Shown: piece after piece, positions 5,510 through 48,380 of the stretch | Layout: every line of letters starts with the position of its first letter | How positions within the stretch are numbered: the stretch's first letter is position 1 | NCBI RefSeq assembly: GCF_900316895.1 | Contig: NZ_ONER01000001.1 | Coordinates: 35,500-99,499 of the forward strand | Source: an uncultured Methanobrevibacter sp. | GTDB taxonomy: Archaea; Methanobacteriota; Methanobacteria; Methanobacteriales; Methanobacteriaceae | DNA length: 64,000 bases | Direction: 5' to 3' | Program-made: the position numbers and the translations under genes | Notes under the pieces: model-generated | Database searches by the model: none | What the model saw: only the letters and a program-made list of their open reading frames with translations | What the model was told of the DNA's origin: nothing

Positions 5510-5690
5510 TAAATAATCCCTCAATTTTTATATTTATACCGGATATGTCAAAAAATAATGATTTTATCCGGAAATATGTTTTTTAAAAAAATATGTTTAT
5601 TTTAGTATATAAAGTTAATTCCTTTTTTATAACAGCTTTTTGAAAATTTTCGGTGCTTTTTTGAAAAAAAATGTAAAATAAAATTTAATT

Positions 5691-6949: not shown

Positions 6950-9112
6950 CTACACCAGCCTAACATGACACATTTTATTGATATTGAAATTTTTATTCCT
7001 CAGCATGACCTTCACATTATTTTTTCCATTGTTAAGCTTTTTGGAACTGATTTTTAAAATACCCTTGGAACTGGTTTTTACATTAAATGTTTTATAATTA
7101 ATTTTTACATTTAAACGAGTGTTTTTAATAGGTTTTTTGGAAATCTTATTCAGTATTTTTATTTCAAGTTTTGAATGTTTTTTGACCGTCTTTGGAGCAT
7201 TAATCCTTGCGGATGCCTTTTTGATTGTGATTTCTGATTTTGCCTTTTTGGATAGCTTAACGTTTTTATCACCAGCAGATATTTCAATGACATGCTTTCC
7301 GACACCTAACTTTGATGTATCGAATTTGATAAGGCCATTCTTATCGCTTTTTACATTATATACCTTAGATTTTCTGCCAGTGAACACTTTTAATTTGAAA
7401 TTTATGCCAGAAACAGCCTTGCCTGTTTTGGAATTTTTTGCAGTTGCCTTAAATAGCTTTGAAGATTCATATTGTGTGGTTATTCTTTTGGCAAACAATT
7501 TGACCGGCGCCTTTACAACCTTTACCTTGATCATATTATAACTGCAGATTCCGCAATCCATCCAAACTTTCAAATCATAGGTGCCGGGTTTAAGGTTTTT
7601 AGGCACTTTAAAACTGAATTCCTTATCCAAAGGTGCATTAATCCACTTGGTGGCATATTTTTGGGGACCTGAGAACTGAATTTTAATTTTCTGCGGATTG
7701 GATAGTTTCCAAGGGGAAGTCACTTTGATTTGCAGGTTGACATCATTGTAATAGCTGCCTGCCTGGGTTATATGAACATAGAAGTCCCCATAAACCTCAC
7801 TGCCCTTGTCTGCACTGTTTGATATGAATCTGTTGTTCAGTGAATACACTCCAGCATTATTGTCATAAATTGCACCACCATTTTTAGATGCCCTGTTTTG
7901 ATAGAAAACTCCTTCTTTTAAAGATATTTGATTTTTGATGATGTATAAAGCTCCACCGGTAACCGCATGATTGTTGTAAAAATTCAAATTTGAAAAATCG
8001 GACGAACCGAGATAGAGAAACATTGCCCCTCCATTTTTGCCGGCACGATTATTGTAAAAGGTGGAATTTGCAATGGCCAGTTTTACATTGTTTGCATAAA
8101 TTGCACCACCATTGACAGAAGCATAATTATTTAAAAAACTGCAATCAATAATATCCACTGTACTTTGATAATCTGCAAAGGGAACAATATTCAGCGCCCC
8201 TCCCTTTACAACATGATTTTCCTCAAAAGAGCAATTCCTTATCAGAGTGTAGGCGGTTGATTCCAAAGTGATGGTTCCGCCCATATAGGTCACATGATTG
8301 TTTTTGAAAACACAATCGGATATTTCCCCTTTTCCCCGCTCATCAATATAGATTGCAGTGTGGCTTGGAGAGGTATTGTTTTCAAACAGACAATTTTTTG
8401 CCAAGAAGGTGGATTGTCTAAAGTTATCCCCTTCATCAAAACTGATTACAAGGATTATTGAAACGTGACCATAATTGTTTTTGAATGTTGAATCATAGAT
8501 TTCAAGGTTTGAATCCATACTGACCAGAAATGCGCCGCCCATTCCAACCTTGAACTTGACCCATTCGAGATCGCTTACGCGAATGCTTGTGTTGTTGTCG
8601 AAAATGCAGTTGTAGACATGAGTATTTGTGGAGCCTTCACAGTTGACAGCACCACCATTGGCATTATACACGTAATTTCCCTTAAAGATGCAGTTCTTTA
8701 AAGTAAGATTGGAATTGTTGCATAAGTATATTGCTCCACCATTATTTTTACTAAAACAGTTTTTAAAGGTGGTGTTCTCGATTAAAACATTACAGTTTTC
8801 TTCAATATATAATCCTCTAGCCTGATGGCTGCCATCGATGATATGGCCATTTCCATTGATATTGATATCTTGGGATATTTCAATTCCCTCAATATAATCA
8901 GAATCGCTTTGGTTGTCGAATTGATAATCCTTAGTTAAATTTACTGACTGCTGATGATTTGATATGTCATCTGACAAGTCTGAATAGGAAGTTACATTTT
9001 CGGCATGAATTGAAGTCATGCTCAAAAATACAAATAGAACAACAAAAATAAACAAAATTTTTTTACTTGAAATTATGTCTTTTGATTTTTTAATCGTCCT
9101 ATCTTCTGCCAT
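6950..9112 (-). CDS. Adhesin-like protein (signal peptide, GGAI/FxxN beta-helix, basic Ig-like C-terminal repeats)
   Basis: Same architecture and N-terminal YSDLSDDI...INGNGHIIDG region as the other two ALPs. Repeats NGGAIYANNVKLAIANSTFYNN and NGGAMFLYLGSSDFSNLNFYNN. K-rich C-terminal ~250 aa. Confidence 0.85.
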   Translation of the reverse strand: MAEDRTIKKSKDIISSKKILFIFVVLFVFLSMTSIHAENVTSYSDLSDDISNHQQSVNLTKDYQFDNQSDSDYIEGIEISQDININGNGHIIDGSHQARGLYIEENCNVLIENTTFKNCFSKNNGGAIYLCNNSNLTLKNCIFKGNYVYNANGGAVNCEGSTNTHVYNCIFDNNTSIRVSDLEWVKFKVGMGGAFLVSMDSNLEIYDSTFKNNYGHVSIILVISFDEGDNFRQSTFLAKNCLFENNTSPSHTAIYIDERGKGEISDCVFKNNHVTYMGGTITLESTAYTLIRNCSFEENHVVKGGALNIVPFADYQSTVDIIDCSFLNNYASVNGGAIYANNVKLAIANSTFYNNRAGKNGGAMFLYLGSSDFSNLNFYNNHAVTGGALYIIKNQISLKEGVFYQNRASKNGGAIYDNNAGVYSLNNRFISNSADKGSEVYGDFYVHITQAGSYYNDVNLQIKVTSPWKLSNPQKIKIQFSGPQKYATKWINAPLDKEFSFKVPKNLKPGTYDLKVWMDCGICSYNMIKVKVVKAPVKLFAKRITTQYESSKLFKATAKNSKTGKAVSGINFKLKVFTGRKSKVYNVKSDKNGLIKFDTSKLGVGKHVIEISAGDKNVKLSKKAKSEITIKKASARINAPKTVKKHSKLEIKILNKISKKPIKNTRLNVKINYKTFNVKTSSKGILKISSKKLNNGKNNVKVMLRNKNFNINKMCHVRLV

Positions 9113-9187: not shown

Positions 9188-10507
9188 TTAAATATCATTT
9201 AAACTAAGTTTTCTTTGTTCTCTTCTGCCATATCTTTCATAATGAAGTAAAGGATTCATTCCATGCTCTTTAACATCGGGATTACAAATATGATACTCAT
9301 CAGTACTGAAATTAGGACCTGGATTAAACCCTTTAGTATAACCTACATGCAGATAATGGTAAACTGGATCATCATAACCATTTAAATCATCATAAGTGTC
9401 CAAATACCAATCTTTATCAAAATATGGTGAATCTGAAATTAAATCATAATCTTTTTGATGTTGTTCATCAGTTAAACACATTCTTCTTTTTTCTTTTCTG
9501 CCAAACAACTCATAATGGACTAAAGGATTTTCCAAAACCCTTTTAACATCATTATTGCACTCAAAGTATTCATGTGTACTGAATTTCATACTTGGATTAT
9601 ACCTTTTTTTATATCCAATGTGCAGATAATGATTGACAGGATCTTTATCCTCATCTAAAATATCATAGGTACTCTCGTACCACTCCTTATCAAAATAAGA
9701 AGAGTTCAAAATCAAATCATAATCTCGTTTATTTTTTTCTTCAATTGAAAATATTCTATTTTCTTTTCTTCCATATTGCTCATAATGAATCAAAGGATTC
9801 AAACCTTTCAACTGAACATCCCTATTACAGGTATAATAATCTTCAGTGTTGAAATTAGGGCCAGGACTAAATCCCCTTTCATAACCAATTAACAAGAAAT
9901 GAACAACAGAATCCGTATTTTTTTCTAAGTTGTAAGTATCTCTATACCATTGATCATCAAATAAATCTGAATTTAAAACTTTAAAATAGTCATTCCATTT
10001 AGGAAAAATATTGTTAAAATTAGTTTCTTTTAAAAAATAATAAAATTTATTTGCTCTTCGTCTATATAACTCATTTAAGATAAATTTAATTTGATTATAA
10101 ATTGACATTTCTATGATTGTGAAAACACCTTCATACTGCTTTAATTCATTTTTATTCTCTTTGAATGTGAAAATATAATCAAAATTTTCTAGATAAATCC
10201 ATTTATCTATGTTGTCTTTAACAATCGCAATTTTAACTATAGACCAATCATGCTTTAATATTTCAGGGTTAAAATCATAATCATCACAAATAATAATTTG
10301 TTTGGAAAAACTACTGCTTTTCTTAAAAGAAAGTCTGAATTTGAATTTCTTAATAAAAATCTGAATAAACTCAGTTGTAAAATCTTCAACATCTTCATAG
10401 TCTTTTAATTCCTGAAAATCAACAAAATTATGTCCCAATAAATCATTATCTTTTGTAAAATATGAAATATTGAATGATTTATAAATATTTTTATAATCAT
10501 ATTCCAT
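9188..10507 (-). CDS. Hypothetical protein with three tandem ~90-aa FDxxWY...HYLxxGY...NPLxHYExxGRxExR repeats
   Basis: Long ORF with an ATG start. The internal triplicated module is clearly visible in the translation. Confidence 0.7.
   Translation of the reverse strand: MEYDYKNIYKSFNISYFTKDNDLLGHNFVDFQELKDYEDVEDFTTEFIQIFIKKFKFRLSFKKSSSFSKQIIICDDYDFNPEILKHDWSIVKIAIVKDNIDKWIYLENFDYIFTFKENKNELKQYEGVFTIIEMSIYNQIKFILNELYRRRANKFYYFLKETNFNNIFPKWNDYFKVLNSDLFDDQWYRDTYNLEKNTDSVVHFLLIGYERGFSPGPNFNTEDYYTCNRDVQLKGLNPLIHYEQYGRKENRIFSIEEKNKRDYDLILNSSYFDKEWYESTYDILDEDKDPVNHYLHIGYKKRYNPSMKFSTHEYFECNNDVKRVLENPLVHYELFGRKEKRRMCLTDEQHQKDYDLISDSPYFDKDWYLDTYDDLNGYDDPVYHYLHVGYTKGFNPGPNFSTDEYHICNPDVKEHGMNPLLHYERYGRREQRKLSLNDI
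9191..9958 (-). repeat. Three in-frame tandem coding repeats (~270 nt each) inside 9188..10507
   Basis: Repeat starts FDDQWYRDTY, FDKEWYESTY and FDKDWYLDTY. Each ends in NPL[IVL]HYE[QLR][YF]GR[KR]E. Repeat boundaries are approximate. Confidence 0.7.
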
Positions 10508-12732: not shown

Positions 12733-14397
12733 TTAAAAATCAGAGGGATTATAAACATTTATTCCAGAAACATGATATATTTTAAGATTTAAAATCATAC
12801 GAAGGTACTCGGAAATGAAAAACATGAATTCATCACCTTGTTTAAAGTTAAATGCATTGAAATTAATTTTTTCATAAATATCTCTTCTTAAATATGAACA
12901 AGAAAATGGAGAATGCATTAATTCTAAAATTTCCCCATTAAAAAATATTGGCATTTGGAAAATATTATCATAAGGAGCAATATCTAACCAATAGTCATCA
13001 TGTGCATGAGGCGCATATTTTTTAATCAAAGGAGAATCTTTAATTAATTGATTAGAAACAATTAATCCACAATTTGGCAAATCATATGCATATTTTTGCA
13101 TTAATTCAATCGATCCAGCTGTTAAAATTGAATTTTGATTTAAAATTAAAATATCTGAATTTGGATTAGAAGCTTGAATTCCATTAATTAGTGCATCTGA
13201 AAATCCTAAATTATTTTTTTCAGTTATTATTGTCGCATTTTTCTTAAATTTTTCAATTGATATATTTAGATTATTATTTGAAATAATAATTTTAATATTT
13301 TCTAAATTCAGTGATAAAATTGAATTTATACATTCCTCTAAATTAATATCATTATCATAAATCGGGATAATTATATCAACATCTTTATTTAATTTATTTT
13401 GCTCATCTGAAAAATTTTGATGATTATTTTCATAAACCTTTTCCCTATTAGCAGGAGTTGTTTCTAATTTACGATTATCAGCCACTTTTAAATAGTACTT
13501 TGATAATAAAAATGGAATTGAGTATATTTTATAATATTTATTTATTTTCAATATCAAATCCCAATCTTCACCTATCGCCAAATCTTCATCAAAACCAGAG
13601 ACTTTTTCAAGCACTTCTTTTTTGTGAACAAAACAATTAATATCAATGTAATTTTGATTAAAGAGTAATGATTTATTCAAATGTCCAAATAACACCTGAG
13701 ATAACTTTGAATCATAAAAATTATATCTTTTTTGAGCTGAATAAATTGCACCCGCATCTGGAAACTCAATAAAAGCACCAACTGAGGCTTTAAGATAATC
13801 TTTATCAAAAAGATTGTCAGAATCTAAATAAGCAATGTAATCTCCATTAACTTCATTTAATGCAATATTTCTAGCCCCTGATGCATCTTTGTTCTCAGCA
13901 TTATATAATATATTGACTTTTTCGTGAGAAATCTTCTTTAACAATTCTGTAGTTCCATCAGTACTTGCATCATCAACTATGATTAACTCAAAATTTTCAT
14001 ATGATTGAGATAAAACAGAATTTATAGCATTCATTACTACCTCTTTTCGATTAAATACTGGCATTATAACTGAAATTAAAGGTTTATTAATTAATTTATC
14101 AACTTTTGAACATAAATAATCCCCAATTAATTCCATAAATTTAAAGCAATACATTTGATTATCTGTAAAAGGAGCATTTATAAATGGGGCATAATATGAA
14201 CTGATTAAAAAACTATTAAAATCAAAATTTGATTCATGATTTTTAATTTCATTATCCTTAATGATTTTTTTAAGTTCTGAAATTTCATTATTTAAATTTT
14301 TTTGATTTTTAATTAAATTTTCATATTCATTTTTATAAAAATTATACTTATCACTTCTATTTAGAATTTTTTCCTTATACTTTTTAGAAAATTTCAT
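12733..14397 (-). CDS. Two-domain GT2 glycosyltransferase with N-terminal coiled coil
   Basis: ISVIMPVFNRKEVVMNAINSVLSQSYENFELIIVDDASTDGT...YLDSDN, then a second GT-A-like region VDIIIPIYDND...NNLGFSDALINGI. The N-terminal ~60 aa is heptad-like. Confidence 0.8.
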   Translation of the reverse strand: MKFSKKYKEKILNRSDKYNFYKNEYENLIKNQKNLNNEISELKKIIKDNEIKNHESNFDFNSFLISSYYAPFINAPFTDNQMYCFKFMELIGDYLCSKVDKLINKPLISVIMPVFNRKEVVMNAINSVLSQSYENFELIIVDDASTDGTTELLKKISHEKVNILYNAENKDASGARNIALNEVNGDYIAYLDSDNLFDKDYLKASVGAFIEFPDAGAIYSAQKRYNFYDSKLSQVLFGHLNKSLLFNQNYIDINCFVHKKEVLEKVSGFDEDLAIGEDWDLILKINKYYKIYSIPFLLSKYYLKVADNRKLETTPANREKVYENNHQNFSDEQNKLNKDVDIIIPIYDNDINLEECINSILSLNLENIKIIISNNNLNISIEKFKKNATIITEKNNLGFSDALINGIQASNPNSDILILNQNSILTAGSIELMQKYAYDLPNCGLIVSNQLIKDSPLIKKYAPHAHDDYWLDIAPYDNIFQMPIFFNGEILELMHSPFSCSYLRRDIYEKINFNAFNFKQGDEFMFFISEYLRMILNLKIYHVSGINVYNPSDF

Positions 14398-14412: not shown

Positions 14413-15546
14413 TTAAATTAAATTTTTTAACTCTGACAATATCTCATCCACCCGATTATCAAAAGTATGATTTTTAAGAACAATTTTTTTTCCTTTTTCT
14501 GCTATTTTAATTCTTTCTTCATCATGATTTAGATAATATTCCAATTTACTATTTAAATAGTCAACACCTTCATAAGTTACAACACTACCTTCAAATAATG
14601 TTTCGGCAGATGGAATTTTATCAGATATTACAAAAGTTCCGCATGCAAGTGCATCAAAAAGTCTATTTGACGGAAAATCCAATTCCCTCATAGTTTCCCA
14701 GTGATCATTTAATAGTATTTTACAAGATGAATAATATTTATGCAATTCTTCATTAGGAATAAAATATCCTTTTACATATCTCTCATCAATGAATTCCGGC
14801 CAACCTCTACCATAAACTGCTACATCAAAATCAGTGCCCATAATATCTTTTATAATTTCTCTATAAACACCTCTTGTTGAGCCTACAAATAAAATATCCT
14901 CAGTTAGAGAATCATCATACTCAGGATAAAAAATATCCGGATCAGTGCATTGCAATAAAGGCTTTATAATAGTATTGACATTTTTACTTAAGTTTTCAGC
15001 ATATTTAATTGAAGAAATGAAACAAATATCATATTTTTCATATTCTTCTTTTGTAACCTTTTCAGGGTCATAAATATTCCACATAATGTTAATTGAATCA
15101 TAACTTGGGTCCCATTCATATTTTCCCCTTAAAAAGAAATTAATATCCACATCAACACTTGTATCATACCAATTTTCTCGTTCATGAATCAAAACATTAA
15201 AACCCTTTTTTTCAAATGATTTTTTTAAAGCAACAGCAAAAAAATAATCTCCCCAATGATGATGGCCAACAGGATTAGGAGTTTTAATTGCTATTGTTAA
15301 ATCAGAATATTCTTCATCGATAAGTTTTTTCATGATAATTGGCTTTGAAAATTTTCCTAATCTTTTCTGCAACTTAATAATTTCATCATAAGAGCTTGAT
15401 AAATTCTTATTTAAGATAGTATTTTCATTTTTAAGTTTCTTTATCTCTTTAATACTTTTTTTGTATTTCTTTCCAATTTTTTCATAATTATTTTTATAAT
15501 AGTTATAACTGTTACTTTTATCCAATAATTTATCTACAAACTTCAT
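14413..15546 (-). CDS. CgeB-like (group-1-type) glycosyltransferase with N-terminal coiled coil
   Basis: The C-terminal region ILLNDHWETMRELDFPSNRLFDALACGTFVISD...HTFDNRV resembles the CgeB/YkvP-type GT domain, judged from memory of that family. Confidence 0.6.
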   Translation of the reverse strand: MKFVDKLLDKSNSYNYYKNNYEKIGKKYKKSIKEIKKLKNENTILNKNLSSSYDEIIKLQKRLGKFSKPIIMKKLIDEEYSDLTIAIKTPNPVGHHHWGDYFFAVALKKSFEKKGFNVLIHERENWYDTSVDVDINFFLRGKYEWDPSYDSINIMWNIYDPEKVTKEEYEKYDICFISSIKYAENLSKNVNTIIKPLLQCTDPDIFYPEYDDSLTEDILFVGSTRGVYREIIKDIMGTDFDVAVYGRGWPEFIDERYVKGYFIPNEELHKYYSSCKILLNDHWETMRELDFPSNRLFDALACGTFVISDKIPSAETLFEGSVVTYEGVDYLNSKLEYYLNHDEERIKIAEKGKKIVLKNHTFDNRVDEILSELKNLI

Positions 15547-15555
15547 AATACTACC

Positions 15556-17388
15556 TTAATAATTATTTAATTCAATTAAAATTTCTGGAAATTGATTTAA
15601 AACATTTTGAAATTGAATATCATTTTTTCCACTTTTATTTATCTCCCATAATGTAGTTTCATCTAAGATACCTAATTCACGTGCTATATTTACATAACAT
15701 AATAAATGCATTGGCTTTTCAATTGCATAAATTTTTGTTTTATTTAAAATAGCCATTGCCCAAAACCAAATATCATCTCCAGAAGGACATAATTTCAAAA
15801 ATAATTCTTCATCAAATATGTTATCATTTAAGGAATTAGGAACAAATAATGTTCCTCCAGCACCTGTTGGAAGATTCAAATAAGATGGATCCTGTTCACT
15901 ATAATTTAATTTCCAATTTAGATAACTATCAATTTTATTATTATTAATTTGTATTTTTCTTGATCTTGCAGATATTATGGAATTAGGATGCTTTTTATGT
16001 GCATCCCACATATTTTTTAACCAGTCTTTTGGGTAAAATATATCATCATCTGCAGTTACAATTATATCATTAGGATACTCTTTAAGAGCAGGAATTAATT
16101 TTTTATAAGATTTAATATCTTCACACCATTTTATTGTTAAACCATTTTTTTTAAGTTCCAATACCTCTTTTGGAATATCATTTTCCTTATTTGGAAACTG
16201 TTCTTCAGCTAACCACAAAACCAATATATTTGGTTTCAAACTTTGAGTTAATAATGAGTATAAACAGTAATGTAAATCATACATTCGTTCAGGAAATGAA
16301 GTTAATGATACAATTAATAACCTAGAATCATTGTTTTTATCAATACCCATTTCATCAAAATTATTAATTTTAGGTAATATCTTCTTTTTATTAATATAGT
16401 TTAATTCTGAATTTTGAGTTTGATTAAACTTTTCAAATGTCTCATATTTTTCAAAATTAATAACATGTATATAAAATTTATGCAATCTAAAACTCAAATT
16501 TTTAAGTACATCATAATTTAGTCTCAAATTAAGAAAATATGACCTCATCATTTCATAATATTCCTTTTTTAATTCAATTGACGATTTTTTAAGATTTTCA
16601 TAAGATTGTAATAAAGCAAATTCTAGAAAATTTAACTTAAATTCCTTTTGAGAATGATTTTCATTTAATAGTTGTTTTACAATATCAATTATATTAAATA
16701 TTTCTAATCTACTATTATTTTTAGTTTGAACTGAATTTTCATTTAATTTATTATAGTTATATAAAATTTCCGGCAAATAAGAAACATATTTAGCAAATAA
16801 CATTGTTTTAATATGAAATGGGATATCTTCAAACATTCTAATAGAATTTGGAAATTGAATATTATGTTTTTTTAAAAAAGAAGTTTTATACAATTTAGAC
16901 CAAACAACAAACATATTATTCATAACTAATTGTTTATTATAATTATAATCAAAAACAAAATCATCATAATTCACATTTTTATCAATAGGTAAATAGATTC
17001 TTTTATGAAACTGATTATTTGTCCTATGTTCAATTGCATTAAATAATACTACTTCAGAACCATTAAAAATAGCATTATTGTAAACTTTTTCCAAACAATC
17101 AAGTTCAATCCAATCATCAGCATCCACAAATGTTAAATAATCACCTTGAGCTAATTCAATACCATTATTTCTACTTTGTGAAGGCCCTAAATTTTCTTGT
17201 GAAACAACAATAATCCGTTTATCATTGTTAGAATATTGATTGAGAATTTCTAATGAAGAATCAGAGGATCCATCATCAATACAAATTATTTCTATATCCT
17301 CAAATGTCTGATTAATGATGCTGTCCAAACATTTTTCCAAATATTTCTCAACATTATAAACTGGAATGATAACAGAAATTTTTACCAT
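15556..17388 (-). CDS. GT2 glycosyltransferase fused to a second GT-A-like domain
   Basis: N-terminus: MVKISVIIPVYNVEKYLEKCLDSIINQTFEDIEIICIDDGSSD...FVDADD. C-terminal half: SLTSFPERMYDLHYCLYSLLTQS...VTADDDIFYP...GDDIWFW (DxD-type motif). RBS GGAGA. Confidence 0.8.
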   Translation of the reverse strand: MVKISVIIPVYNVEKYLEKCLDSIINQTFEDIEIICIDDGSSDSSLEILNQYSNNDKRIIVVSQENLGPSQSRNNGIELAQGDYLTFVDADDWIELDCLEKVYNNAIFNGSEVVLFNAIEHRTNNQFHKRIYLPIDKNVNYDDFVFDYNYNKQLVMNNMFVVWSKLYKTSFLKKHNIQFPNSIRMFEDIPFHIKTMLFAKYVSYLPEILYNYNKLNENSVQTKNNSRLEIFNIIDIVKQLLNENHSQKEFKLNFLEFALLQSYENLKKSSIELKKEYYEMMRSYFLNLRLNYDVLKNLSFRLHKFYIHVINFEKYETFEKFNQTQNSELNYINKKKILPKINNFDEMGIDKNNDSRLLIVSLTSFPERMYDLHYCLYSLLTQSLKPNILVLWLAEEQFPNKENDIPKEVLELKKNGLTIKWCEDIKSYKKLIPALKEYPNDIIVTADDDIFYPKDWLKNMWDAHKKHPNSIISARSRKIQINNNKIDSYLNWKLNYSEQDPSYLNLPTGAGGTLFVPNSLNDNIFDEELFLKLCPSGDDIWFWAMAILNKTKIYAIEKPMHLLCYVNIARELGILDETTLWEINKSGKNDIQFQNVLNQFPEILIELNNY

Positions 17389-17405: not shown

Positions 17406-17729
17406 CTATTTTCTGAAAATTCTAAAAAGTTTTCTTAAAGGACTAGTGATTTTCCAACTAGTAGATGATTTTAGTTCTTTATTTTCATTTTTAACTTTTT
17501 TTAAATCTTTTTTTAGAGATTTAAGTTCCTTATTTTTCTTTTTAATATCTCTTTTAAGAGAATTTATTTTTTTATTTTTTTCATTAATCTGGCTCTCTAA
17601 AACAAATAAATATTCCTTAGTATTATTTGAAACAAATTTTAATTCATCTAATTGAACTTCCAAATCCTCAATGATTTTTTCATTTTCTAAAAGTTTATCA
17701 TGAACATTACAATCATCGTCTAAAGTCAT
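17406..17729 (-). CDS. Stand-alone coiled-coil protein ending in SWKITSPLRK motif
   Basis: 107 aa, heptad-rich and Lys/Glu-rich. GGAGA RBS 7 nt upstream of ATG. The C-terminus SSTSWKITSPLRKLFRIFRK matches the tails of three larger enzymes in the window. Confidence 0.6.
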   Translation of the reverse strand: MTLDDDCNVHDKLLENEKIIEDLEVQLDELKFVSNNTKEYLFVLESQINEKNKKINSLKRDIKKKNKELKSLKKDLKKVKNENKELKSSTSWKITSPLRKLFRIFRK

Positions 17730-17804: not shown

Positions 17805-19346
17805 TTAATAGTATTTTGCGATTAAAGAAAATATCATTGAAACAATAAAAACTAATATCAAAACAAAAATGTAATGATCATATTCATTTTTTTCAATTTT
17901 ATTAAGATTTAAAGAAAATACAATAGGCAATAGAGCAAATAATGGTAAGAAATATCTGGTATGTACTCCAGTAATAGTTAAACTACCTGCAGGTGACCAT
18001 GATAATAATTGCACAATATATGTTCCGAAATATATCACAATAAAAGTTAGTAATGCTCCGAATCTGAATTTTGAATTAATTTTTTCACCAATTGGATAAG
18101 TGAAACAAATTACAAGCAATGATACCAATATAAACAATGATATCAATTCAGAAGCATTATAAACTCCGCCTTCAATGGTATATGCATAAAAACTAAAAAA
18201 TCCATTGAAAATATAACTAAAGCTATATAAAATATTTATAAATACATTAAAAATATTTAATGGATCAGATAATAAAAAATTCATTTGATTAGCTATACTC
18301 ACATTATTTTGAGTAATATATGTTGCCCTCCATGAATGAACTAATGCAGGAGTTGCATAAGACTTACTCCACAACACTCCAATCAATCCAACTGTAATTA
18401 AACCAATTAAACAATAGATATAATAATTTTTTTGCTTAAAATTATTCTTTGGCAAAAAGAACAATAATAAAATTAAAGCTAGATAAGGCAACTTACATAA
18501 CCCGGTAAGCAAAGATAAAATGGAAATAATAAAAATTTCTTTTATTCCAAACTCATTTTTATACATGTATATAAAATAAGAAATTGTCAAAATACCTAAT
18601 CCTGCAACTACAGAATCTATACTTACTGAAAATGCCTGAAACAAACAAACCGGCAAACATGCAATAAAAAACAAAGGCATTTTAAATAAAGGTGCTTTTT
18701 TGATTGCATAAGCAACTATTGTTGAATATAATAAGCTATTAAAAATTCTTGCAAGCCACAACATCCAAATTACATTTAAATCCAATAATTTAGCGATGAA
18801 AATCCCCAATCCTGAGAATAGATATCCAAAAAATGGGTTTTGTTCAAAGGCCGAAGAAACTTCAACTAGAGTATTATTAATCTTACCGGTATCTCCATTA
18901 ACTTCAAAAACAGTTTTATCTATAGAGTGAACGAAAAAACCTGGGATACTATCAATTGTTTTAAATGAACCATTGACATATTCCGGAAATAAAATTCCTC
19001 TTGAAGTCAATTCAGCACGTGTAAAATGTTCCCCTTCATCTGAAACCGAATCGATTGGAATAACAAATGAAGTTATTAATCCAAACAGCAACAAGACAAT
19101 AAAAACAGTTTTATATAGTTCTTTATCATTGTTATGTCCCTGATAATAACTTATCAAAATAATGCCCAATATTGAGAGAAAAATTAAAGCAAAAAATTCC
19201 ATTTTAGGATGATTATAATTTTTGACAGTCATCAAAGATAATGAACATAACATTACTAAAACTAAAAATAAAATCCAATATTTCTTGGATTTAAAGAAAT
19301 TATCTTTAAAAGAACTTAATTTAAATTTTAACATTTTATTTTTCAT
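17805..19346 (-). CDS. Polytopic membrane protein, DUF2142-like putative GT-C glycosyltransferase
   Basis: At least 12 TM segments. The first extracytoplasmic loop carries SVSDEGEHFTRAE, which resembles the DUF2142 D-E-x-x-H motif as I recall it. ATG at 19346 is preceded by GAAGGT; the track start at 19358 is TTG. Confidence 0.55.
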   Translation of the reverse strand: MKNKMLKFKLSSFKDNFFKSKKYWILFLVLVMLCSLSLMTVKNYNHPKMEFFALIFLSILGIILISYYQGHNNDKELYKTVFIVLLLFGLITSFVIPIDSVSDEGEHFTRAELTSRGILFPEYVNGSFKTIDSIPGFFVHSIDKTVFEVNGDTGKINNTLVEVSSAFEQNPFFGYLFSGLGIFIAKLLDLNVIWMLWLARIFNSLLYSTIVAYAIKKAPLFKMPLFFIACLPVCLFQAFSVSIDSVVAGLGILTISYFIYMYKNEFGIKEIFIISILSLLTGLCKLPYLALILLLFFLPKNNFKQKNYYIYCLIGLITVGLIGVLWSKSYATPALVHSWRATYITQNNVSIANQMNFLLSDPLNIFNVFINILYSFSYIFNGFFSFYAYTIEGGVYNASELISLFILVSLLVICFTYPIGEKINSKFRFGALLTFIVIYFGTYIVQLLSWSPAGSLTITGVHTRYFLPLFALLPIVFSLNLNKIEKNEYDHYIFVLILVFIVSMIFSLIAKYY

Positions 19347-19803
19347 AACAACCTTCAAAATTATTAATATTCAAGAACCTTGAATTCATAACATTTTGTA
19401 TATCTTCATAAACTATCTCAACTTATATTGAATTTACATTCATACAGGAACTGCATAACATTTGGATATTGCCTTATAATCAAATTCAAAATACTGATGA
19501 GATTAAAACCTATTGAATGTATATATTCTTTATTGAATATAAATTTTTAGTTTTAAGAATTAATTATAAGTAAAACTAAAAGAATTGAACAATATAACTA
19601 ATTAACAGAAAAAATACTGCATTAAAATTAATGAGGAAAATAAAATTAATTGATTTTAACAGGATCGATATTCATTTTAATAGACATTTGTTAATTCGGA
19701 AAAAATCTGTCTATTAAATCTAGTAATAATCCTATTTTTCTCAAAACTGTTTTTATTAAAGATAAGTCATATATTTTCATGTGGTTTAAAGTACAATTAA
19801 AAT

Positions 19804-21888
19804 TTAAATATTCTTTTTAAATTTCCTTAAAGGTTCTGTTAATTTCCAACTTTTAGAATTGAGAAGTGATTTATTCTCTTTTTTAAGCTTTTTATTTTGT
19901 TTTTTAAGTTTTTTATTATTCTTTTCTAATTTCTTATTTTTCTTTTTGAGTTTTTCATTATCCTTCGTCAGCTTGACTATATCCTTATTTAGTTTATTGC
20001 TTGTTTCCTCATAGAGTATTTTAAGATATTCAAATTTAAATTCCAAATAATCATCAATATTTAATACTAAATCAAATTTAACATTATTTTTTGGAACAAA
20101 TTTCTCATCAATTCTTGAAAATCTTTCTTTAGCCAATGCAAAATACTCCTGTGAGTCTGCAATAATTATATAATACAATACATGATAAATAACAAATCGA
20201 TAAAAATCTGATTCCAATTCTTCAAACATTCCTTCATTTTTAAGAATTTCTTCAACAATATCGATGATTTTAAATATGCCAATACTGTTAGAAGACGTAT
20301 GATTTACGGAATTTAGATTATCTAACCTATAATGATACAAGAATTCATTTACAAATGATATTTTTTGTGCCCGTATCATAGATTTTACATGAAACGGCAC
20401 ATCATCAAAAGCAATACCTACATCAAAACGAAAATCCTCATAGTTATCTAAAAATTCTTTTTTATACAGTTTAGACCAAGGCGCATATCCTATATCAAAA
20501 ACTATCTCTTTTACATCATGATAATTAAAAGAATACCTTTTGAAATTTTTATTTTTCAAAAGTTTATCAAGATTGAAATATGTACGTGAATTTGTAATCT
20601 TGTTATTTTCAATAACATTGGCTTTAAATATTACAATATCCGAATCATTGTATATTGCATTTTTATAAGTTTTTTCAAAGGCATCTAATTCAATTTGATC
20701 ATCTGGGTCAAATAAATAAATATAATCACCTTTTGCTTCATCTAAAGCCCGATTCCTTGCAGATCCACAACCGCCATTTTCCTTATTAATTACTTTTACA
20801 CGTGAATCCCTTTTGGAAAAATCATTTAAAATTTCTAGGGAATTATCTGTAGACCCGTCATTAACGCAAATTAGTTCAAAATCACTGAAAGTCTGATTTA
20901 ACAGGCTATCAATTGAATTTTCGAGAAATTCAGATACATTATAAACAGGAATCAAAACAGATATTCGAGGGTTATTTCTATCATTAAAATCAACAAGCTT
21001 TTTCATTTCTTCATTTTTCTCATGATAAAAATAGAAATTTTCTTCAAAATTTCTTAAAACATCAGGCTGGTCTTTAAAAATTTCCCTTGTAGCGTCTAAG
21101 ATATCCTTTCCGCCTTCAACGCCCATCATCCTAATAAAATCCACCATTTCATATCTGAATTGATGTCTAATTTTATCAAATTTCGAATCGGATAAATAAT
21201 CAAATACCATTTTATAGTGCATCATATGGTCAAAGCGTTTTTTACGGGTATTGCACTGATTTGCGCCACTTACATAATAATATGCATAAAAATCAATAGG
21301 CACTGTATAAATTTCATTAATTTTAGATAAGATTTCAGCTAAAAAAACTGGGTCCTGTCCCCTTAACAAATCCGGAAAAGTTATCTGCTCATTTACAATG
21401 AGTTCCCTTTTAAAAATATTTTTATAAAAAGACCAGGGAATCCCATATTCTTCAGGTTTTATCTTTTTAAATTCAGTATAATAATCCAAATGAACAAATG
21501 GAGAAAATTCATCCTTGTCATTAATTAATTTTATATTACCTGAAACCATATCCGCATTATTTTTAATAGCTACATTATACAATTCCTCTAATGCAGCATT
21601 ATCAACAAAAATATCATCCGCATCTAAAAAACCTATATAATCCCCTGTAGCTTCACTCATCCCGTAATTTCTTGCTTTACCTGATCCTTGATTTTCCTGT
21701 GATAATACTTTGATAAATTCATGTTCTTTGGCGAATTCATTTAAAATTTCTAATGAATCATCAGTTGACCCATCATTTACACATATAAGTTCAATATCTT
21801 TTAGTGTTTGATTGATTACAGTGTTAATAGATTTATCTAAACGGTCTGCATCATTAAAAACCGGCATAATAATTGAAACTTTAGTCAT
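19804..21888 (-). CDS. Double GT2 glycosyltransferase with C-terminal Lys-rich coiled coil and SWKLTEPLRK tail
   Basis: Domain 1: VSIIMPVFNDADRLDKSINTVINQTLKDIELICVNDGSTDDS...FLDADD. Domain 2: ISVLIPVYNVSEFLENSIDSLLNQTFSDFELICVNDGSTDNS...LFDPDD. The tail is a KLKKKNKKLEKNNKKLKKQNKKLKKENK heptad array. Confidence 0.85.
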   Translation of the reverse strand: MTKVSIIMPVFNDADRLDKSINTVINQTLKDIELICVNDGSTDDSLEILNEFAKEHEFIKVLSQENQGSGKARNYGMSEATGDYIGFLDADDIFVDNAALEELYNVAIKNNADMVSGNIKLINDKDEFSPFVHLDYYTEFKKIKPEEYGIPWSFYKNIFKRELIVNEQITFPDLLRGQDPVFLAEILSKINEIYTVPIDFYAYYYVSGANQCNTRKKRFDHMMHYKMVFDYLSDSKFDKIRHQFRYEMVDFIRMMGVEGGKDILDATREIFKDQPDVLRNFEENFYFYHEKNEEMKKLVDFNDRNNPRISVLIPVYNVSEFLENSIDSLLNQTFSDFELICVNDGSTDNSLEILNDFSKRDSRVKVINKENGGCGSARNRALDEAKGDYIYLFDPDDQIELDAFEKTYKNAIYNDSDIVIFKANVIENNKITNSRTYFNLDKLLKNKNFKRYSFNYHDVKEIVFDIGYAPWSKLYKKEFLDNYEDFRFDVGIAFDDVPFHVKSMIRAQKISFVNEFLYHYRLDNLNSVNHTSSNSIGIFKIIDIVEEILKNEGMFEELESDFYRFVIYHVLYYIIIADSQEYFALAKERFSRIDEKFVPKNNVKFDLVLNIDDYLEFKFEYLKILYEETSNKLNKDIVKLTKDNEKLKKKNKKLEKNNKKLKKQNKKLKKENKSLLNSKSWKLTEPLRKFKKNI
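19875..19958 (-). repeat. Four imperfect 21-nt tandem units encoding the NKKLKKx heptad array
   Basis: Plus-strand units are ttctcttttttaagcttttta, ttttgttttttaagtttttta, ttattcttttctaatttctta and tttttctttttgagtttttca. Confidence 0.6.
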
Positions 21889-38175: not shown

Positions 38176-38183
38176 TTTACCAC

Positions 38184-38834: not shown

Positions 38835-38865
38835 TTAAGAATTCTCCCTCTAAAACCAATTCAAT

Positions 38866-39836: not shown

Positions 39837-41213
39837 CTACTTTTTATTTCTAATGTCCCTTAATGGTTTTGTCAATTTCCAAGAGTTTGATGACAATATA
39901 TCCTCATTAAGTTCTTTTAATGCCTCATTTTCAGCTTTTAATTTGGAATTTTTCTTAAACTCGAAATCATATAATTGGTTGAGAGCCGTCAGTCTCTGTG
40001 CAAAATAATCCTCATTAACGGAGCAGTTTTCATCCTTAAAGCCATGATCCTCAAGAATATTAATCAATTGAGTCCTGCAAGAGTTAAAATCTCTAATATC
40101 TGATTTGTATTTTACATCAAACTTGGACAATGCACTTCCATTTTCATAAAAGGCCCAAATATCCCTTGAAGAGCCCAGATAGTCTGAAATCTTTGAAGGC
40201 AAATATGGATTATATGGCCAAACACCATCAGTTACCACATCATTGACCATCAATACATCAAATTTGGTTGTGGCATTTAAAAATTCAAAATAATCCAAAG
40301 GTTTTTTAACAATGAAACTGTCACGTGAAGATAAAGTGGAAATCAGTTTCTTCATTAAGGACACATCCTTAATGAACAGATAAATCCTGATTTTGTCCTT
40401 AAATTTATGATTTAAAGATTCAATTGAATAAAATAAGCTTTCAAAATGTCTTTGGCCATAATAATCACGACCAAAATAAGCCATATTAATATAATTTTCA
40501 TTCAAATCCAGTTCAGCGGATTGGACATGATAATATTTCTCATCCAAAGTCGGATGCCTTTCAATCACGCTTTTTTTAAGGGCAAATTCTTGAACATCTT
40601 CTGGAAATTGATTAAGCATTGCATTCCTTTGATTTTCATTAGTGAAAACCAATTTGTCTGCAAATAAATATGTAAGATACTCTGCAAGGAAAAAAACAGA
40701 AGATCTATTTTCAATCAATGGAAATTCACAATTGTTTTTCTCGTTAAGCCCAATAATATGTCCATTAACCTCATCCACATAGTCTGGATTGTCAATGAAG
40801 AATTTCTTATTATTTCTGATTTTATTTGAAATGTTTAAAATTAAAGGGTCTGAAAACTCCGCAGTCCAAAAAACATCAGGATTTGAAAACTTATATTCTA
40901 GAGCTATGAAATGATTGTTTGCAATCCATGATCTTGAATAAATCTTTGCATAATCCTTTTCTATTAGATTCATGGAGTCTTCAAGTGATTTGAAAACACA
41001 TTCTGGAGTATCCAGTTCACAGCCAATGTCCAAAAAAATTCTGTCATTGATATATTGATTAAAAATACCCAAATCTTCAACAGGCAATTCCAATTTAGCC
41101 TGAAAAACATCAACCGGTTTTTTATTATTTAATATTCTTTTAAAAACATTTATTCCAGATACATAATCAGAAGGTGGAAATAATAAAGAAATAACTAACT
41201 CATCACTATCCAT
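39837..41213 (-). CDS. Hypothetical protein (possible GT-B-like enzyme) with C-terminal coiled coil and SWKLTKPLR tail
   Basis: 458-aa ORF with an ATG start. The C-terminus is KLKAENEALKELNEDILSSNSWKLTKPLRDIRNKK. I do not recognise the N-terminal domain. Confidence 0.55.
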   Translation of the reverse strand: MDSDELVISLLFPPSDYVSGINVFKRILNNKKPVDVFQAKLELPVEDLGIFNQYINDRIFLDIGCELDTPECVFKSLEDSMNLIEKDYAKIYSRSWIANNHFIALEYKFSNPDVFWTAEFSDPLILNISNKIRNNKKFFIDNPDYVDEVNGHIIGLNEKNNCEFPLIENRSSVFFLAEYLTYLFADKLVFTNENQRNAMLNQFPEDVQEFALKKSVIERHPTLDEKYYHVQSAELDLNENYINMAYFGRDYYGQRHFESLFYSIESLNHKFKDKIRIYLFIKDVSLMKKLISTLSSRDSFIVKKPLDYFEFLNATTKFDVLMVNDVVTDGVWPYNPYLPSKISDYLGSSRDIWAFYENGSALSKFDVKYKSDIRDFNSCRTQLINILEDHGFKDENCSVNEDYFAQRLTALNQLYDFEFKKNSKLKAENEALKELNEDILSSNSWKLTKPLRDIRNKK

Positions 41214-42423: not shown

Positions 42424-42456
42424 AAAAAAAAATAAAAAAAGTTGATTAACCAACTT
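42424..42456 (-). terminator. Hairpin plus long oligo-T terminator after adhesin-like gene
   Basis: Minus strand reads AAGTTG-GTTAAT-CAACTT (overlaps the stop codon) followed by TTTTTTATTTTTTTTT. Confidence 0.55.
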
Positions 42457-47174: not shown

Positions 47175-48380
47175 TTAAATCTTTTTAGAAATCCTTTCAT
47201 AAATGTTTTTAGTCTTATATGAAAACCATCCCTGAGTGGTCTTGATTAATTTAATTTCATCTTTTAACTTCTTATTATCCTTTTTCAGACTGCCATTGAT
47301 ACTGATTTGCTCATTAACCTGTTTTCTTAAATTTCTATTTTTTGCGTTTAATTCCTTGATCTTATCCTTATAAGAACGCTCAGAACTAACCAATCTGATT
47401 AATGAGTCAAAATCCTCATTTAAAAACAGGTCATATTTCAGTTTATCGATATCCTCCAGATTAGTAAAGGATTCTTCTGGAAGAGTTTCGGCAAAAGGCC
47501 TTACATCATTGTCCATTATCTCAATATATTCCTTTTCGCACCTATCAAATTCATTAATATACTGCAATATATCAATTTCAACAAGTTTTTTATAGAATGT
47601 ATCCAATAAAGAAGAGTTTTTCTCCGAAGAGTTGAAAACATCCAATATTCTTTTTGAAATGGTGATTCTGTCCTTTAAATTTTTCAACTTGAAAACATTC
47701 TGTGTAACTGAATAATTTTCACTGGTTCTGACTCTCCAATAATAGTTAACATCAGGTAAAATTCCCAAACATTTGCTTGCACAAAAAAGCTCCATTGAAA
47801 ACAAAAGGTCTTCATATAACATATTTTCTAAAAATTTAAAACCTGAATCGTCGATTAAATCCTTTCTTATGAATTTTGACATACTAGTATCATAAATTAA
47901 AGTCTTATGCTCAAAAATATTGGTTTTTGAATAGGTTTTGTCATATCCTGCCTTGGAATGTAATACACAAGTCCATTCAACACCTTCATCATTGAAGCGA
48001 ATGGCATTGAAAACCACCAAGTCATGGTCATAATCTTTTGCAAATTTATAAAGTTTTTCATATGCATCTTCCTGAATTTTATCATCTGAATCCAGAAAAG
48101 TCACATATTCTCCGTTAGCTATATCTAAACCTTTATTTCTTGAAATTGATTGTCCTTGATTAGACTCATTTTCTATCAATATAATCCTATCATCCTTTTT
48201 AGAATACTCCTTTAAAATTTTAAGACAATCATCACTGGAGTTATCTTCAATGCAGATTATTTCAATGTCTTCAAGTGTCTGACTGATTATTGAATCCAAA
48301 CATTCTTCAAGATATTCTTCCGTATTATAAACCGGAACTATTACACTAACCAAAGGATTTTCAACACTCATATTAATCAT
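47175..48380 (-). CDS. GT2 glycosyltransferase with C-terminal coiled coil
   Basis: VSVIVPVYNTEEYLEECLDSIISQTLEDIEIICIEDNSSD...FLDSDD. C-terminus is KELNAKNRNLRKQVNEQ...KKLKDEIKLIKTTQGWFSYKTKNIYERISKKI. ATGA overlap with the upstream gene. Confidence 0.85.
   Translation of the reverse strand: MINMSVENPLVSVIVPVYNTEEYLEECLDSIISQTLEDIEIICIEDNSSDDCLKILKEYSKKDDRIILIENESNQGQSISRNKGLDIANGEYVTFLDSDDKIQEDAYEKLYKFAKDYDHDLVVFNAIRFNDEGVEWTCVLHSKAGYDKTYSKTNIFEHKTLIYDTSMSKFIRKDLIDDSGFKFLENMLYEDLLFSMELFCASKCLGILPDVNYYWRVRTSENYSVTQNVFKLKNLKDRITISKRILDVFNSSEKNSSLLDTFYKKLVEIDILQYINEFDRCEKEYIEIMDNDVRPFAETLPEESFTNLEDIDKLKYDLFLNEDFDSLIRLVSSERSYKDKIKELNAKNRNLRKQVNEQISINGSLKKDNKKLKDEIKLIKTTQGWFSYKTKNIYERISKKI

Follow-up and report, generated by a model that had tools for sequence, protein, structure and literature searches.

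Three proteins encoded in the cell-wall sugar-polymer locus of a methanogen end in a common coiled-coil stalk and a conserved basic tail. Six-frame translation of the window, a 64-kb stretch of DNA (64,000 nt) from an uncultured Methanobrevibacter sp., yielded three matches to the pattern SW[KR][ILVM]T.P[LIVM]R, all on the minus strand. The narrower form S-W-K-[IL]-T-x-P-L-R likewise occurs exactly three times, each copy being preceded by a heptad coil. The first copy (17433-17459) is located in a 107-aa ORF (17406-17729), the second (19825-19851) in a 694-aa double GT2 protein (19804-21888), and the third (39858-39884) in a 458-aa protein (39837-41213); in all three, a stop codon follows 6–8 residues after the motif. 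In its DNA form, the motif gave three matches against 0.00 expected from 100 dinucleotide-preserving shuffles of the window. The synonymous codons differ among the three copies, which indicates that their similarity is maintained at the protein level and rules out a recent DNA duplication as their source. A motif-only HMM, trained on 108 sequences that all come from other genomes, matched these three ORFs and no others (E 3e-10 to 2e-9); the next-best window ORF reached E = 0.65. The earlier note on this DNA had described four such tails. Motif, HMM and coil confirm three of them, whereas the fourth, in a GT2 at 47175-48380, scored E = 27 and falls outside the family.

The stand-alone 107-aa gene (17406..17729, minus strand) is an ATG-start ORF with a Shine-Dalgarno sequence, AAGGAGA, 6 nt upstream of the ATG. 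In the encoded protein, an N-terminal helix that is conserved, QLDELKF(I/V)SNNTKEYLFVLE, precedes a heptad coil rich in Lys, which leads to the tail SSTSWKITSPLRKLFRIFRK. Its foot (17409..17468, minus strand) reads S-S-T-S-W-K-I-T-S-P-L-R and continues into the cationic amphipathic KLFRIFRK, with a motif HMM score of E = 4e-10; the segment PLRKLFRIFRK has a hydrophobic moment of 1.01 and a net charge of +5. AF2 places a helix over residues 4-106. The gene is flanked, as the earlier note had it, by a DUF2142 membrane protein (17805-19358) and a GT2 fusion (15556-17388). The latter, on the minus strand and 17 nt downstream, is a 610-aa dual glycosyltransferase with a Pfam GT2 at its N-terminus and a second domain, without a coil or tail of its own. 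Its GT2 shares 39% identity with the second GT2 of the 694-aa protein, and with the fused bacterial versions described below it shares generic GT2 similarity alone (25% identity). In loci L126-L130, the same small gene is paired with a GT2 gene for 609-611 aa across a spacer of 16-17 nt; the upstream neighbour differs among these loci, while the downstream GT2 is constant. Across loci, it is thus the ~610-aa dual glycosyltransferase, and not the DUF2142 protein, that is conserved next to the small gene.

The dN/dS ratio, the Shine-Dalgarno site and the conserved glycosyltransferase pairing establish the 107-aa ORF as a real gene. It is very improbable that the ORF is a functionless remnant of a longer glycosyltransferase gene that has lost its catalytic part, even though metagenomes contain many ORFs of 38-130 aa ending in the motif. 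At least one of these, P0017, follows two Pfam-less ORFs as it would in a disrupted gene, and the A-rich coil DNA, with runs of 6-7 A, could favour frameshifts or assembly errors. However, the gene is under purifying selection, with a dN/dS of 0.14 against the L126 orthologue at 85% nucleotide identity, and it possesses a translation start signal of its own. The protein also carries its own conserved N-terminal segment, confined to its orthologues; searches with its N-terminal half detected relatives nowhere else. Its length is steady, with homologues in eight clusters of 96-119 aa that differ by heptad-multiple indels, and on divergent contigs the gene invariably occupies the place ahead of the ~610-aa GT2. 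The exact 107-aa sequence (WP_296782237.1) is present on 145 contigs. Homopolymer phase variation was considered separately and set aside, as the A runs in the coil DNA reach at most 7, which is unremarkable for this genome.

In the 694-aa protein (19804..21888, minus strand), which contains two GT2 stretches, the module comprises residues ~618-694 (nt 19807-20037) and ends in NSKSWKLTEPLRKFKKNI. Successive ‘a’ positions of its coil are Asn and the ‘d’ positions Leu, and the module HMM matched it with E = 3e-13. The 458-aa protein (39837..41213, minus strand) combines a GT-B-fold part (residues 1-~400) with a coil at 403-441 and the foot SSNSWKLTKPLRDIRNKK, coil and foot together occupying nt 39840-40007. 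No Pfam or NCBIfam family matched this protein. Its AF2 model (pLDDT 87.6, pTM 0.82) contains a helix at 403-441, and Foldseek retrieved with it the GT-B glycosyltransferases PglA, BshA, MshA and PimB' at E ~1e-8. A total of 376 Methanobrevibacter-type homologues were identified. The tail of the window protein, PLRDIRNKK, is weakly amphipathic (moment 0.44), and in about one third of the aligned orthologues the motif is exchanged for plain basic-hydrophobic ends such as KSRKRFKIF and SNSKRFRWLK, the behaviour expected of a generic anchor. The window module proteins are thus a dual GT2, a GT-B fold and a protein with no enzyme part; recognisable terminators are absent from them. The Pfam GT2 at 47175..48380 (minus strand) likewise combines a coiled coil with a basic tail (moment 0.42, charge +4). 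With a module HMM E-value of 27 and no match to the motif HMM, it was ruled out as a degenerate member of the motif family, and its tail may be a functional analogue of the foot.

The foot has the consensus (I/L/M)-x-N-S-x-S-W-(K/R)-(I/L/V)-T-x-P-(L/V)-R, which the coil enters in a fixed heptad register. Among 108 unique copies from other genomes, hydrophobic residues occupy positions -6, -9, -13, -16, -20 and -23 from the Trp, and Asn is found at -4 in 63 copies, a position left free by the search pattern. Past the Arg in the same 108 copies, position +8 is basic, +9, +12 and +13 are hydrophobic, and +14 and +15 are K/R. The coil follows an a/d pattern (a = I/L/N/V, d = L) that looks dimer-like. 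The coiled coil that had been claimed ahead of the motif is borne out by this fixed register, by the AF2 helices and by the indels: in a comparison of coil lengths, as the earlier note had advised, orthologues varied by 7 or 14 residues. Furthermore, two module proteins encoded on plasmids have coils built of exact 14-residue tandem units.

The tail has a mean hydrophobic moment of 0.69, against 0.38 in shuffles, and a mean net charge of +5.4, so that an amphipathic region directly after the coil is predicted in silico. Where the motif is internal, the 40 residues that follow it carry +6 to +11 in most cases. No transmembrane-like stretch was detected past the motif, internal copies included (Kyte-Doolittle 11-residue maximum below 2). 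A C-terminal sorting signal of the LPXTG, PEP-CTERM or PGF-CTERM type was rejected, because only 5-13 mostly basic residues follow and a transmembrane segment is lacking; the carriers, moreover, are nucleotide-sugar-type enzymes rather than secreted proteins.

Searches of Pfam-A 2025 and NCBIfam 20.0 with the tail returned sub-threshold matches to generic coiled-coil families alone, and 104 module proteins scanned against family models matched catalytic-domain families alone. Among solved structures, no PDB chain carries the motif, and weak structure-database matches to the PVL lectin were discarded as blade repeats unrelated to it. A full-text literature search for the motif strings retrieved no description of the module, and the strings are absent from the supplement of PMC11231755.

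Helices typically end in residues such as the Ser or Asn that precede the Trp and the Thr-x-Pro that follows it. The motif might accordingly be a coiled-coil cap or trigger that fixes register, orientation, oligomeric state and helix end (through S-x-S and T-x-P capping) without a direct role at the membrane. The constant heptad register into the motif in 108 copies fits this, as do the helix-end-type residues flanking the Trp and the AF2 model of the 458-aa protein, in which the helix breaks at S442-S444 and a new one starts from W445. In the AF2 model of the 107-aa protein, by contrast, the helix runs on without a break, and both monomer tails are modelled at a pLDDT of about 55-62; with such low confidence and conflicting outcomes, the two models say little about the tail. 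Capping would also leave unexplained why a cationic amphipathic stretch (mean charge +5.4) is conserved past the Arg, why internal copies have a long basic linker and why orthologues replace the tail by basic-hydrophobic ends, and we consider it decidedly unlikely.

The module is not restricted to Archaea. A pattern search of genomes found at least 110 true copies among the 120 matches listed, in many bacterial phyla and in Methanobacteriales; the pattern fixes AAR, TTR and AGR codons and is biased to low-GC genomes and the K...PLR form, and its counts are samples rather than a census. In a profile search, the module was present in at least 1,909 protein clusters. The element S-x-S-W-(K/R)-(I/L/V)-T-x-P-(L/V)-R is near-invariant from Proteobacteria to Methanobacteriales. 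The pattern and HMM searches proposed by the earlier note thus extend the motif across many bacterial phyla, and the bacterial S-W-R-[IL]-T-x-P-L-R endings after coiled coils, mentioned there, exist and are common. About 85% of module copies are C-terminal and about 15% internal. With a strict coil filter, 71 of 86 complete copies lie within 16 residues of the C-terminus, mostly with 5-13 residues after the Arg, and in the profile search 113 of the 119 copies with the strict motif did likewise.

In the internal copies, a methyltransferase, sulfotransferase, pyruvyltransferase, glycosyltransferase or unknown domain is followed by the coil, the motif, 40-90 residues and a polymerase part, the latter consisting of GT2+GT2, RgpF or WbsX/GT1. 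Relatives of the window proteins carry SAM methyltransferases, a sulfotransferase, a pyruvyltransferase, FkbM and GT99 domains. Terminator-type domains (SAM methyltransferase, sulfotransferase, pyruvyltransferase, GT99) are fused to the module in relatives.

The association with ABC exporters differs between the bacterial loci and those of Methanobrevibacter. A module protein adjoins ABC permease and ATPase genes in all six plasmid loci inspected, and of 119 arbitrary 8-kb genome blocks, 19 contain a Wzm-like permease; one Methanobacterium locus also shows exporter linkage. Searches with phmmer and jackhmmer for a Wzm-like permease came up empty both across the 64-kb window and in some 25 further Methanobrevibacter loci, and the sole ABC system in the window (37492-39696) is amino-acid importer-like, judged from its sequences. 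The proposed connection with ABC-transporter-dependent polysaccharide systems consequently holds for the bacterial loci and fails for the window and the ~25 Methanobrevibacter loci, which have no Wzm/Wzt. With no such exporter and no recognisable terminator in the window, chain-length control, that is, a ruler function, is putative for this archaeon.

The closest characterised counterpart is WbdD of the E. coli O9/O9a system (= K. pneumoniae O3), in which a coiled coil acts as a molecular ruler. [quoted passage not shown] In E. coli HS O9 WbdD (708 aa), the sequence SRSWRMTKGYR (residues 592-602) is located at the end of the coil in the heptad register of the module, with hydrophobic residues at -6, -9, -13, -20 and -23 and Asn at -16. 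Directly after it comes YLGLQIHLLRQYGFVQRCKHFIKRVLRFVFSFMRKH, with a net charge of +9. In a search of 322 ORFs, the module HMM aligned to WbdD residues 568-599 at E = 7e-6, and WbdD received no score from the motif-only HMM, for which K...PLR copies had served as training set. The likeness to WbdD-type rulers suggested by the earlier note is supported by this apparent divergent copy of the motif at the coil end of a characterised ruler. [quoted passage not shown]

Several differences between WbdD and the window proteins were observed. The second half of the motif deviates, with K-G-Y-R where the module has x-P-L-R, and WbdD continues for ~105 residues after the motif, against 6-8 residues between the Arg and the end of the window proteins. 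WbdD is a chain-terminating methyltransferase-kinase encoded beside wzm/wzt and wbdA, while the window module proteins have glycosyltransferase domains or no enzyme and are encoded in a stretch without such an exporter. WbdD is also a trimer (PMC3482155), in contrast to the apparently dimer-like a/d pattern of the module coil.

Other known systems resemble the module proteins in architecture. Two module proteins have an N-terminal domain of GT99, the glycosyltransferase family founded by WbbB (K. pneumoniae O12). The internal copies, ~15% of the total, have the single-polypeptide terminator-ruler-polymerase layout described for K. pneumoniae O7 ORF6 (PMC11231755). The 107-aa and 610-aa pair of the window resembles the coil-foot/GT-GT portion of such a polypeptide, distributed over two genes; unlike WbbB/ORF6-type proteins, which were compared here by architecture, the pair has no terminator domain. 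A Woesearchaeota ORF with the order coil-motif-GT2-GT1 (L056) was considered as a fused form of the pair, and its N-masked 5' end deprives it of any value as proof.

Based on these features, we propose that the module forms the membrane-proximal foot of a stalk, itself a parallel coiled coil, by which otherwise soluble enzymes of glycan assembly are tethered to the membrane on its cytoplasmic side, a reading to which we assign about even probability. The 5-13 residues after the motif would form a short, strongly cationic amphipathic helix, and oligomerisation of the coil would join at least two of these weak anchors, giving avidity binding to the anionic membrane surface. Coil length would set how far from the membrane the catalytic domain, at the opposite end, is held, a distance estimated at ~60-125 Å for the 39-85-residue helices found here (~1.5 Å per residue). 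The geometry of such a stalk would be that of the WbdD and WbbB rulers. In the fused bacterial proteins the polymerase domains come after the foot, and would therefore be placed at the membrane. The 107-aa protein would represent an enzyme-free stalk and foot, co-translated with the anchor-less ~610-aa dual glycosyltransferase, which it would most likely recruit or scaffold via its conserved N-terminal helix. An adaptor role for the free-standing copy, as put forward in the earlier note, is plausible.

MinD and FtsA offer an analogy for this tethering, since they too are cytoplasmic proteins whose last residues form a short, cationic amphipathic helix. Like their tails, the module would be expected to bind membranes only with several copies together. 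The targeting sequences of MinD and FtsA are poorly conserved and have no fixed motif or coiled coil ahead of them, whereas the module is near-invariant across phyla and domains. The resemblance therefore concerns the possible working of the module and not family membership.

Generic amphipathic anchors are normally not conserved residue by residue, and archaeal and bacterial lipids differ. The near-invariance of the motif from Proteobacteria to Methanobacteriales thus points to something more specific than lipid binding. One possibility, which we hold only tentatively, is that a conserved partner (for example a polymerase, an adaptor glycosyltransferase or an exporter) docks onto the motif as a short linear site merely presented by the coil, with the 107-aa protein acting as a pure bridging adaptor. 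The very strong conservation of specific residues agrees with docking, as do the bacterial copies beside ABC exporter genes and the conserved pairing of the 107-aa gene with the dual glycosyltransferase. In addition, recruitment of the WbdA polymerase has been attributed to the region that follows the WbdD coil (PMC11231755, PMC3482155). However, the motif is unchanged where a polymerase is already fused downstream, and Methanobrevibacter loci that lack Wzm/Wzt retain it as well. The enzymes fused to it or encoded nearby are also very diverse, with no single partner family prominent, and orthologues of the 458-aa protein dispense with the motif in favour of generic basic-hydrophobic ends.

A broader possibility, which we regard as unlikely, is that the foot is a specific recognition element common to Bacteria and Archaea, going beyond a lipid anchor and defining a pan-prokaryotic class of coiled-coil stalk scaffolds. 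It might recognise, for example, an acceptor linked to polyprenyl-(pyro)phosphate, or an assembly partner of universal occurrence. If so, methanogens would use enzyme-free stalks such as the 107-aa protein as trans-acting rulers or adaptors, and wall polymers of Archaea would be subject to ruler-type length control without a Wzm/Wzt exporter.

Coiled-coil rulers are the accepted chain-length device of ABC-transporter-dependent glycan systems. To our knowledge, a generic coiled-coil prediction has so far been the only means of recognising them. A searchable foot motif in fixed register with the coil provides a specific handle for ruler-type proteins in any genome, and its invariant W, T, P and R are mutation targets that bear on stalk anchoring and polymerase recruitment. 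The window suggests that gut and rumen Methanobrevibacter build their wall glycopolymers with bacterial-type, stalk-anchored enzyme assemblies that include a stand-alone stalk protein. Such assemblies would be relevant to methanogen surface antigens and to vaccine targets for methane mitigation.

The motif also flags the gene in the kfoC position of the O1/O2 locus that is clinically dominant in K. pneumoniae. In K. pneumoniae ATCC 13883, the gene between wbbO and hisI encodes a 438-aa GT2 followed by a coil and then SLSWKVTRPLRLIKALITRKM. At that position of the O1/O2 rfb locus, kfoC is listed without known function (PMC7556023), and the identification of the ATCC 13883 gene as kfoC is based on gene order only. 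This protein has a single GT2, compared with the double GT2 in the window, and its locus includes a Wzm/Wzt exporter that the window lacks. Its GT2-coil-foot architecture is that of the GT2-coil-foot proteins encoded in the window.

In the six-frame translation of the window, the pattern SW[KR][ILVM]T.P[LIVM]R was found exactly three times, always on the minus strand and with a stop codon 6-8 residues after the motif end. The copies close a 107-aa ORF (17406-17729), a 694-aa double GT2 protein (19804-21888) and a 458-aa protein (39837-41213), which are represented by WP_296782237.1, WP_296782268.1 and WP_296782241.1. At the DNA level, the three matches compare with 0.00 expected from 100 shuffles of this low-GC stretch (22-37%), and since synonymous codons differ among the three copies, the motif is conserved at the protein level. 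A motif-only HMM trained solely on other genomes matched the same three ORFs (E 3e-10 to 2e-9) and no further window ORF better than E = 0.65. The earlier note had assigned the tail to four proteins; these three are supported by motif and HMM, while the supposedly degenerate fourth, the GT2 at 47175-48380, combines a coiled coil with a basic tail yet was rejected as a member because it scored E = 27 with the module HMM (coil plus foot), no detectable match. Basic amphipathic-looking tails without the motif, such as KSTFRKILDSLKRKV and FKSKVDKFIRKVYKKIHK, also end a GT2 and TagF-like proteins of the locus (41258-42355, 44521-45843, 45852-47159 and 29506-33015).

The anatomy of the module was derived from a scan of one genome per prokaryotic species with the codon-restricted pattern S/T-x-S-W-K-h-T-x-P-L-R, which returned at least 119 loci. 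Because the codons are fixed in the pattern, the counts describe a codon-biased sample weighted towards low-GC genomes, a bias shared by the motif HMM. Among the 120 matches listed, 110 followed coil-like sequence within long ORFs, and about 10 were due to chance. Positions left free by the pattern were analyzed in the 108 unique copies among the matches listed. Asn occupied position -4 from the motif Trp in 63 of these 108, though unfixed by the pattern, and hydrophobic residues at -6, -9, -13, -16, -20 and -23 traced an a/d heptad (a = I/L/N/V, d = L). Beyond the motif Arg, position +8 was basic, +9, +12 and +13 were hydrophobic, and +14 and +15 were K/R, followed by the stop. The P-L-R segment plus eight residues had a mean hydrophobic moment of 0.69 vs 0.38 in shuffles, and the mean net charge from the motif Lys to the protein end was +5.4. 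Internal copies mostly carried +6 to +11 over the 40 residues after the motif, where no transmembrane-like stretch was found. The two AF2 monomer models, of the 107-aa and 458-aa proteins, disagree on the tail. In Wenzhouxiangella limi, one protein (L091 2946-4391) contains two tandem foot motifs, SYSWRLTRPLRWFLRVF and, about 45 residues on, NSKSWKITKPLRIFS.

The enrichment at C-termini anticipated in the earlier note was observed in two datasets. A strict coil filter retained 86 complete copies among those listed; 71 of them had the motif within 16 residues of the protein end (mostly 5-13 after the Arg), and 14 had it internally with at least 340 residues downstream. Additionally, the archaeal-type module profile, compared with 1.84 billion representatives, matched at least 1,909 clusters at E ≤ 0.001; the strict motif was present in 119 of the best 146 hits, within 16 residues of the C-terminus in 113 of them. 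Archaea contributed 30 of the 108 unique genome copies among the matches listed, most of them from Methanobrevibacter, the others from one Methanobacterium, one Methanobacteriaceae, two Woesearchaeota MAGs and one unclassified archaeal MAG. No description of the motif was found in Pfam-A or NCBIfam models, PDB chains or searchable papers.

Similar endings after coiled coils, which the earlier note had mentioned for bacteria, were present both in the bacterial genomes of the pattern scan and in plasmid proteins. A tblastn search with a 24-residue tail retrieved motif-bearing plasmid proteins whose annotations were rhamnan synthesis F, glycosyltransferase, sulfotransferase, pyruvyltransferase and FkbM methyltransferase. 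All six plasmid loci inspected contained ABC permease and ATPase genes, and four contained rfbBADC genes. The motif was C-terminal in two and internal in four, the latter with the order SAM methyltransferase, sulfotransferase or pyruvyltransferase, long coil, LLN(S/T)NSW(K/R)ITKPLR and polymerase-type domains. Two plasmid-borne, O-antigen-type proteins with an N-terminal sulfotransferase or pyruvyltransferase (L002 7429-12792 and L004 6291-9353) have coils in which a 14-residue (two-heptad) unit is repeated exactly in tandem, 14 times in one and at least 9 times in the other; stalk length could obviously be altered through repeats of this kind. Among the 104 module proteins tallied from the matches listed, the domain upstream of the coil was GT2 in 27, a SAM methyltransferase in about 13, GT1 and ATP-grasp in 4 each, FkbM and TOD1/MUCI70 in 3 each, and GT99 and Pyruvyltransferase in 2 each. 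Downstream of 21 internal motifs were GT2 (9), GT1 (6), RgpF (5) and WbsX (2). Of the 119 arbitrary 8-kb blocks at the module loci listed, 19 contained a Wzm-like permease.

According to the Whitfield laboratory, what marks the terminator proteins of ABC-transporter-dependent assembly is an extended coiled coil. In E. coli HS, the manC-manB-wzm-wzt genes of the O9 cluster are followed by a 708-aa "class I SAM-dependent methyltransferase" (L135 8967-11093, NC_009800.1 2147966-2150092) and wbdA; the 708-aa length equals that given for WbdD. This protein contains NENQQLRQEIEKIHRSRSWRMTKGYRYLGLQIHLLRQYGFVQRCKHFIKRVLRFVFSFMRKH, with SRSWRMTKGYR at residues 592-602. Considering that S-x-S-W-R-M-T begins at 592, that I, I, L, N, L and I at -6, -9, -13, -16, -20 and -23 reproduce the module register, that a basic hydrophobic C-terminal region (+9) follows directly, and that residues 568-599 align with the module HMM (E = 7e-6 among 322 ORFs, the top-scoring ORF of the two HS stretches searched), the prototype ruler WbdD, judged by sequence, probably carries a divergent module copy at the junction of coil and membrane region. 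The motif-only HMM gives it no score, the K-G-Y-R half being deviant. Furthermore, K. pneumoniae ATCC 13883 encodes a 438-aa protein with a GT2, a coil and SLSWKVTRPLR between wbbO and hisI (L116 4636-5952); by gene order we assign it to kfoC, which follows wbbO in the O1/O2 rfb locus and whose function is listed as unknown (PMC7556023).

The data best support a coiled-coil stalk of which the module would form the membrane-proximal foot, and we infer that this foot binds the membrane. The coil would oligomerize, the conserved motif would terminate it, the cationic amphipathic end would rest on the membrane surface, and coil length would fix the distance of the enzyme at the far end. The a/d pattern looks dimeric, in contrast to the WbdD trimer (PMC3482155); we likewise infer oligomeric state, partner binding and any chain-length effect. 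Anchoring is supported by the tail chemistry, the strict C-terminal position, the replacement of the motif by generic basic-hydrophobic tails in orthologues and the location of the probable copy in WbdD. The foot model does not account for the nearly residue-for-residue conservation of the motif between domains of life, which leaves room for a specific docking element or a structural cap. As a stalk and anchor, the module would work as in WbdD and WbbB and is common to proteins of that class. The window has neither a linked ABC exporter nor a recognizable terminator domain, so its proteins are only candidates for the terminator-ruler class. To the known ruler and anchor principle, the result adds a sharply conserved foot motif that had not been listed before, its expansion in archaea and a stand-alone stalk protein; it is useful and testable, yet no new kind of system.

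The 107-aa ORF is a gene, with a dN/dS of 0.14 (against one orthologue at 85% nucleotide identity) and AAGGAGA 6 nt upstream of its ATG. Its homologues form eight clusters (96-119 aa) sharing the tail and the N-terminal segment QLDELKF(I/V)SNNTKEYLFVLE; the coil-length comparison proposed earlier revealed indels of 7 and 14 residues. Relatives of the N-terminal half were found solely among its own orthologues. The AF2 model is a single helix (4-106), confident at 11-80 and uncertain in the tail. On five contigs, four near-identical and one divergent, a homologue precedes a 609-611-aa GT2 fusion by 16-17 nt, and the window shows the same pair, with the 610-aa dual glycosyltransferase at 15556-17388. 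The gene upstream varies (acyltransferase, GT2 or DUF2142); thus, of the described placement between DUF2142 and a GT2 fusion, only the fusion side is constant. Given the conserved pair, the 107-aa protein may be an enzyme-free stalk scaffolding the adjacent anchor-less enzyme. The pair resembles the "coil-foot, GT-GT" part of fused bacterial proteins, with generic similarity only between the 610-aa protein and their GT2-GT2 parts; the GT2 of the 610-aa protein and the second GT2 domain in the 694-aa protein are 39% identical. Metagenomes contain numerous ORFs of 38-130 aa made up of coil and foot alone, most with a Met start (P0009-P0023, P0182-P0327), which may be either genuine mini-proteins or remnants. 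In the two contexts inspected, a 59-aa ORF (L132 4001-4180) stands alone between DUF2193 and SAM synthetase genes, and a 51-aa ORF (L131 4001-4156) comes after two Pfam-less ORFs, resembling a broken gene.

The family of the 458-aa protein comprises 376 homologues and has no Pfam match; all source-named members are from Methanobrevibacter. Its AF2 model (pLDDT 87.6) has a GT-B fold resembling PglA, BshA, MshA and PimB' at 8-12% identity. Coil length among orthologues changes in steps of 7 or 14 residues, and roughly a third of those aligned carry short basic-hydrophobic ends (KSRKRFKIF, SNSKRFRWLK, SKWDKLFNKIKNR) instead of the motif. The 64-kb window also encodes nine TagF-like glycerophosphotransferase domains, many GT2 proteins, DUF2142, PMT_2, LicD, a GtrA and GT2 pair, three acyltransferases and one UDP-glucose dehydrogenase. 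This content agrees with the phosphate-rich glycopolymers, still unidentified, that have been proposed for the wall of M. ruminantium (PMC2812497). No Wzm-like permease was detected, jackhmmer included, in the window or about 25 other Methanobrevibacter module loci; one Methanobacterium module locus has one. Among the glycopolymer genes, three large secreted adhesin-like proteins (3557-5524, 6950-9112 and 42455-44350) share N-terminal signal-like segments and near-identical Lys-rich C-terminal ends.

Other recurrent elements were observed. The mirror image of the foot module is an N-terminal one, in which Met, a short basic helix, (I/L)LN(R/K)SxxYxFYK and a coiled coil precede GT2, Glyco_trans_1_2 or LicD domains; it is present in the window (12733-14397, 14413-15546 and 51565-52548, all minus) and recurs at L049 6421-7470, at L078 6104-7999, where it comes after and in frame with a C-terminal SWKITKPLR motif, and at L130 6086-6625, as a 179-aa stand-alone ORF. 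Finally, a repeat some 90 residues long with NP(L/F)xHY at its end occurs three times in a Pfam-less 439-aa window protein (9188-10507, minus) and is also present in L015 and L126-L129; in the E. coli plasmid protein of L002, it directly follows the foot motif.
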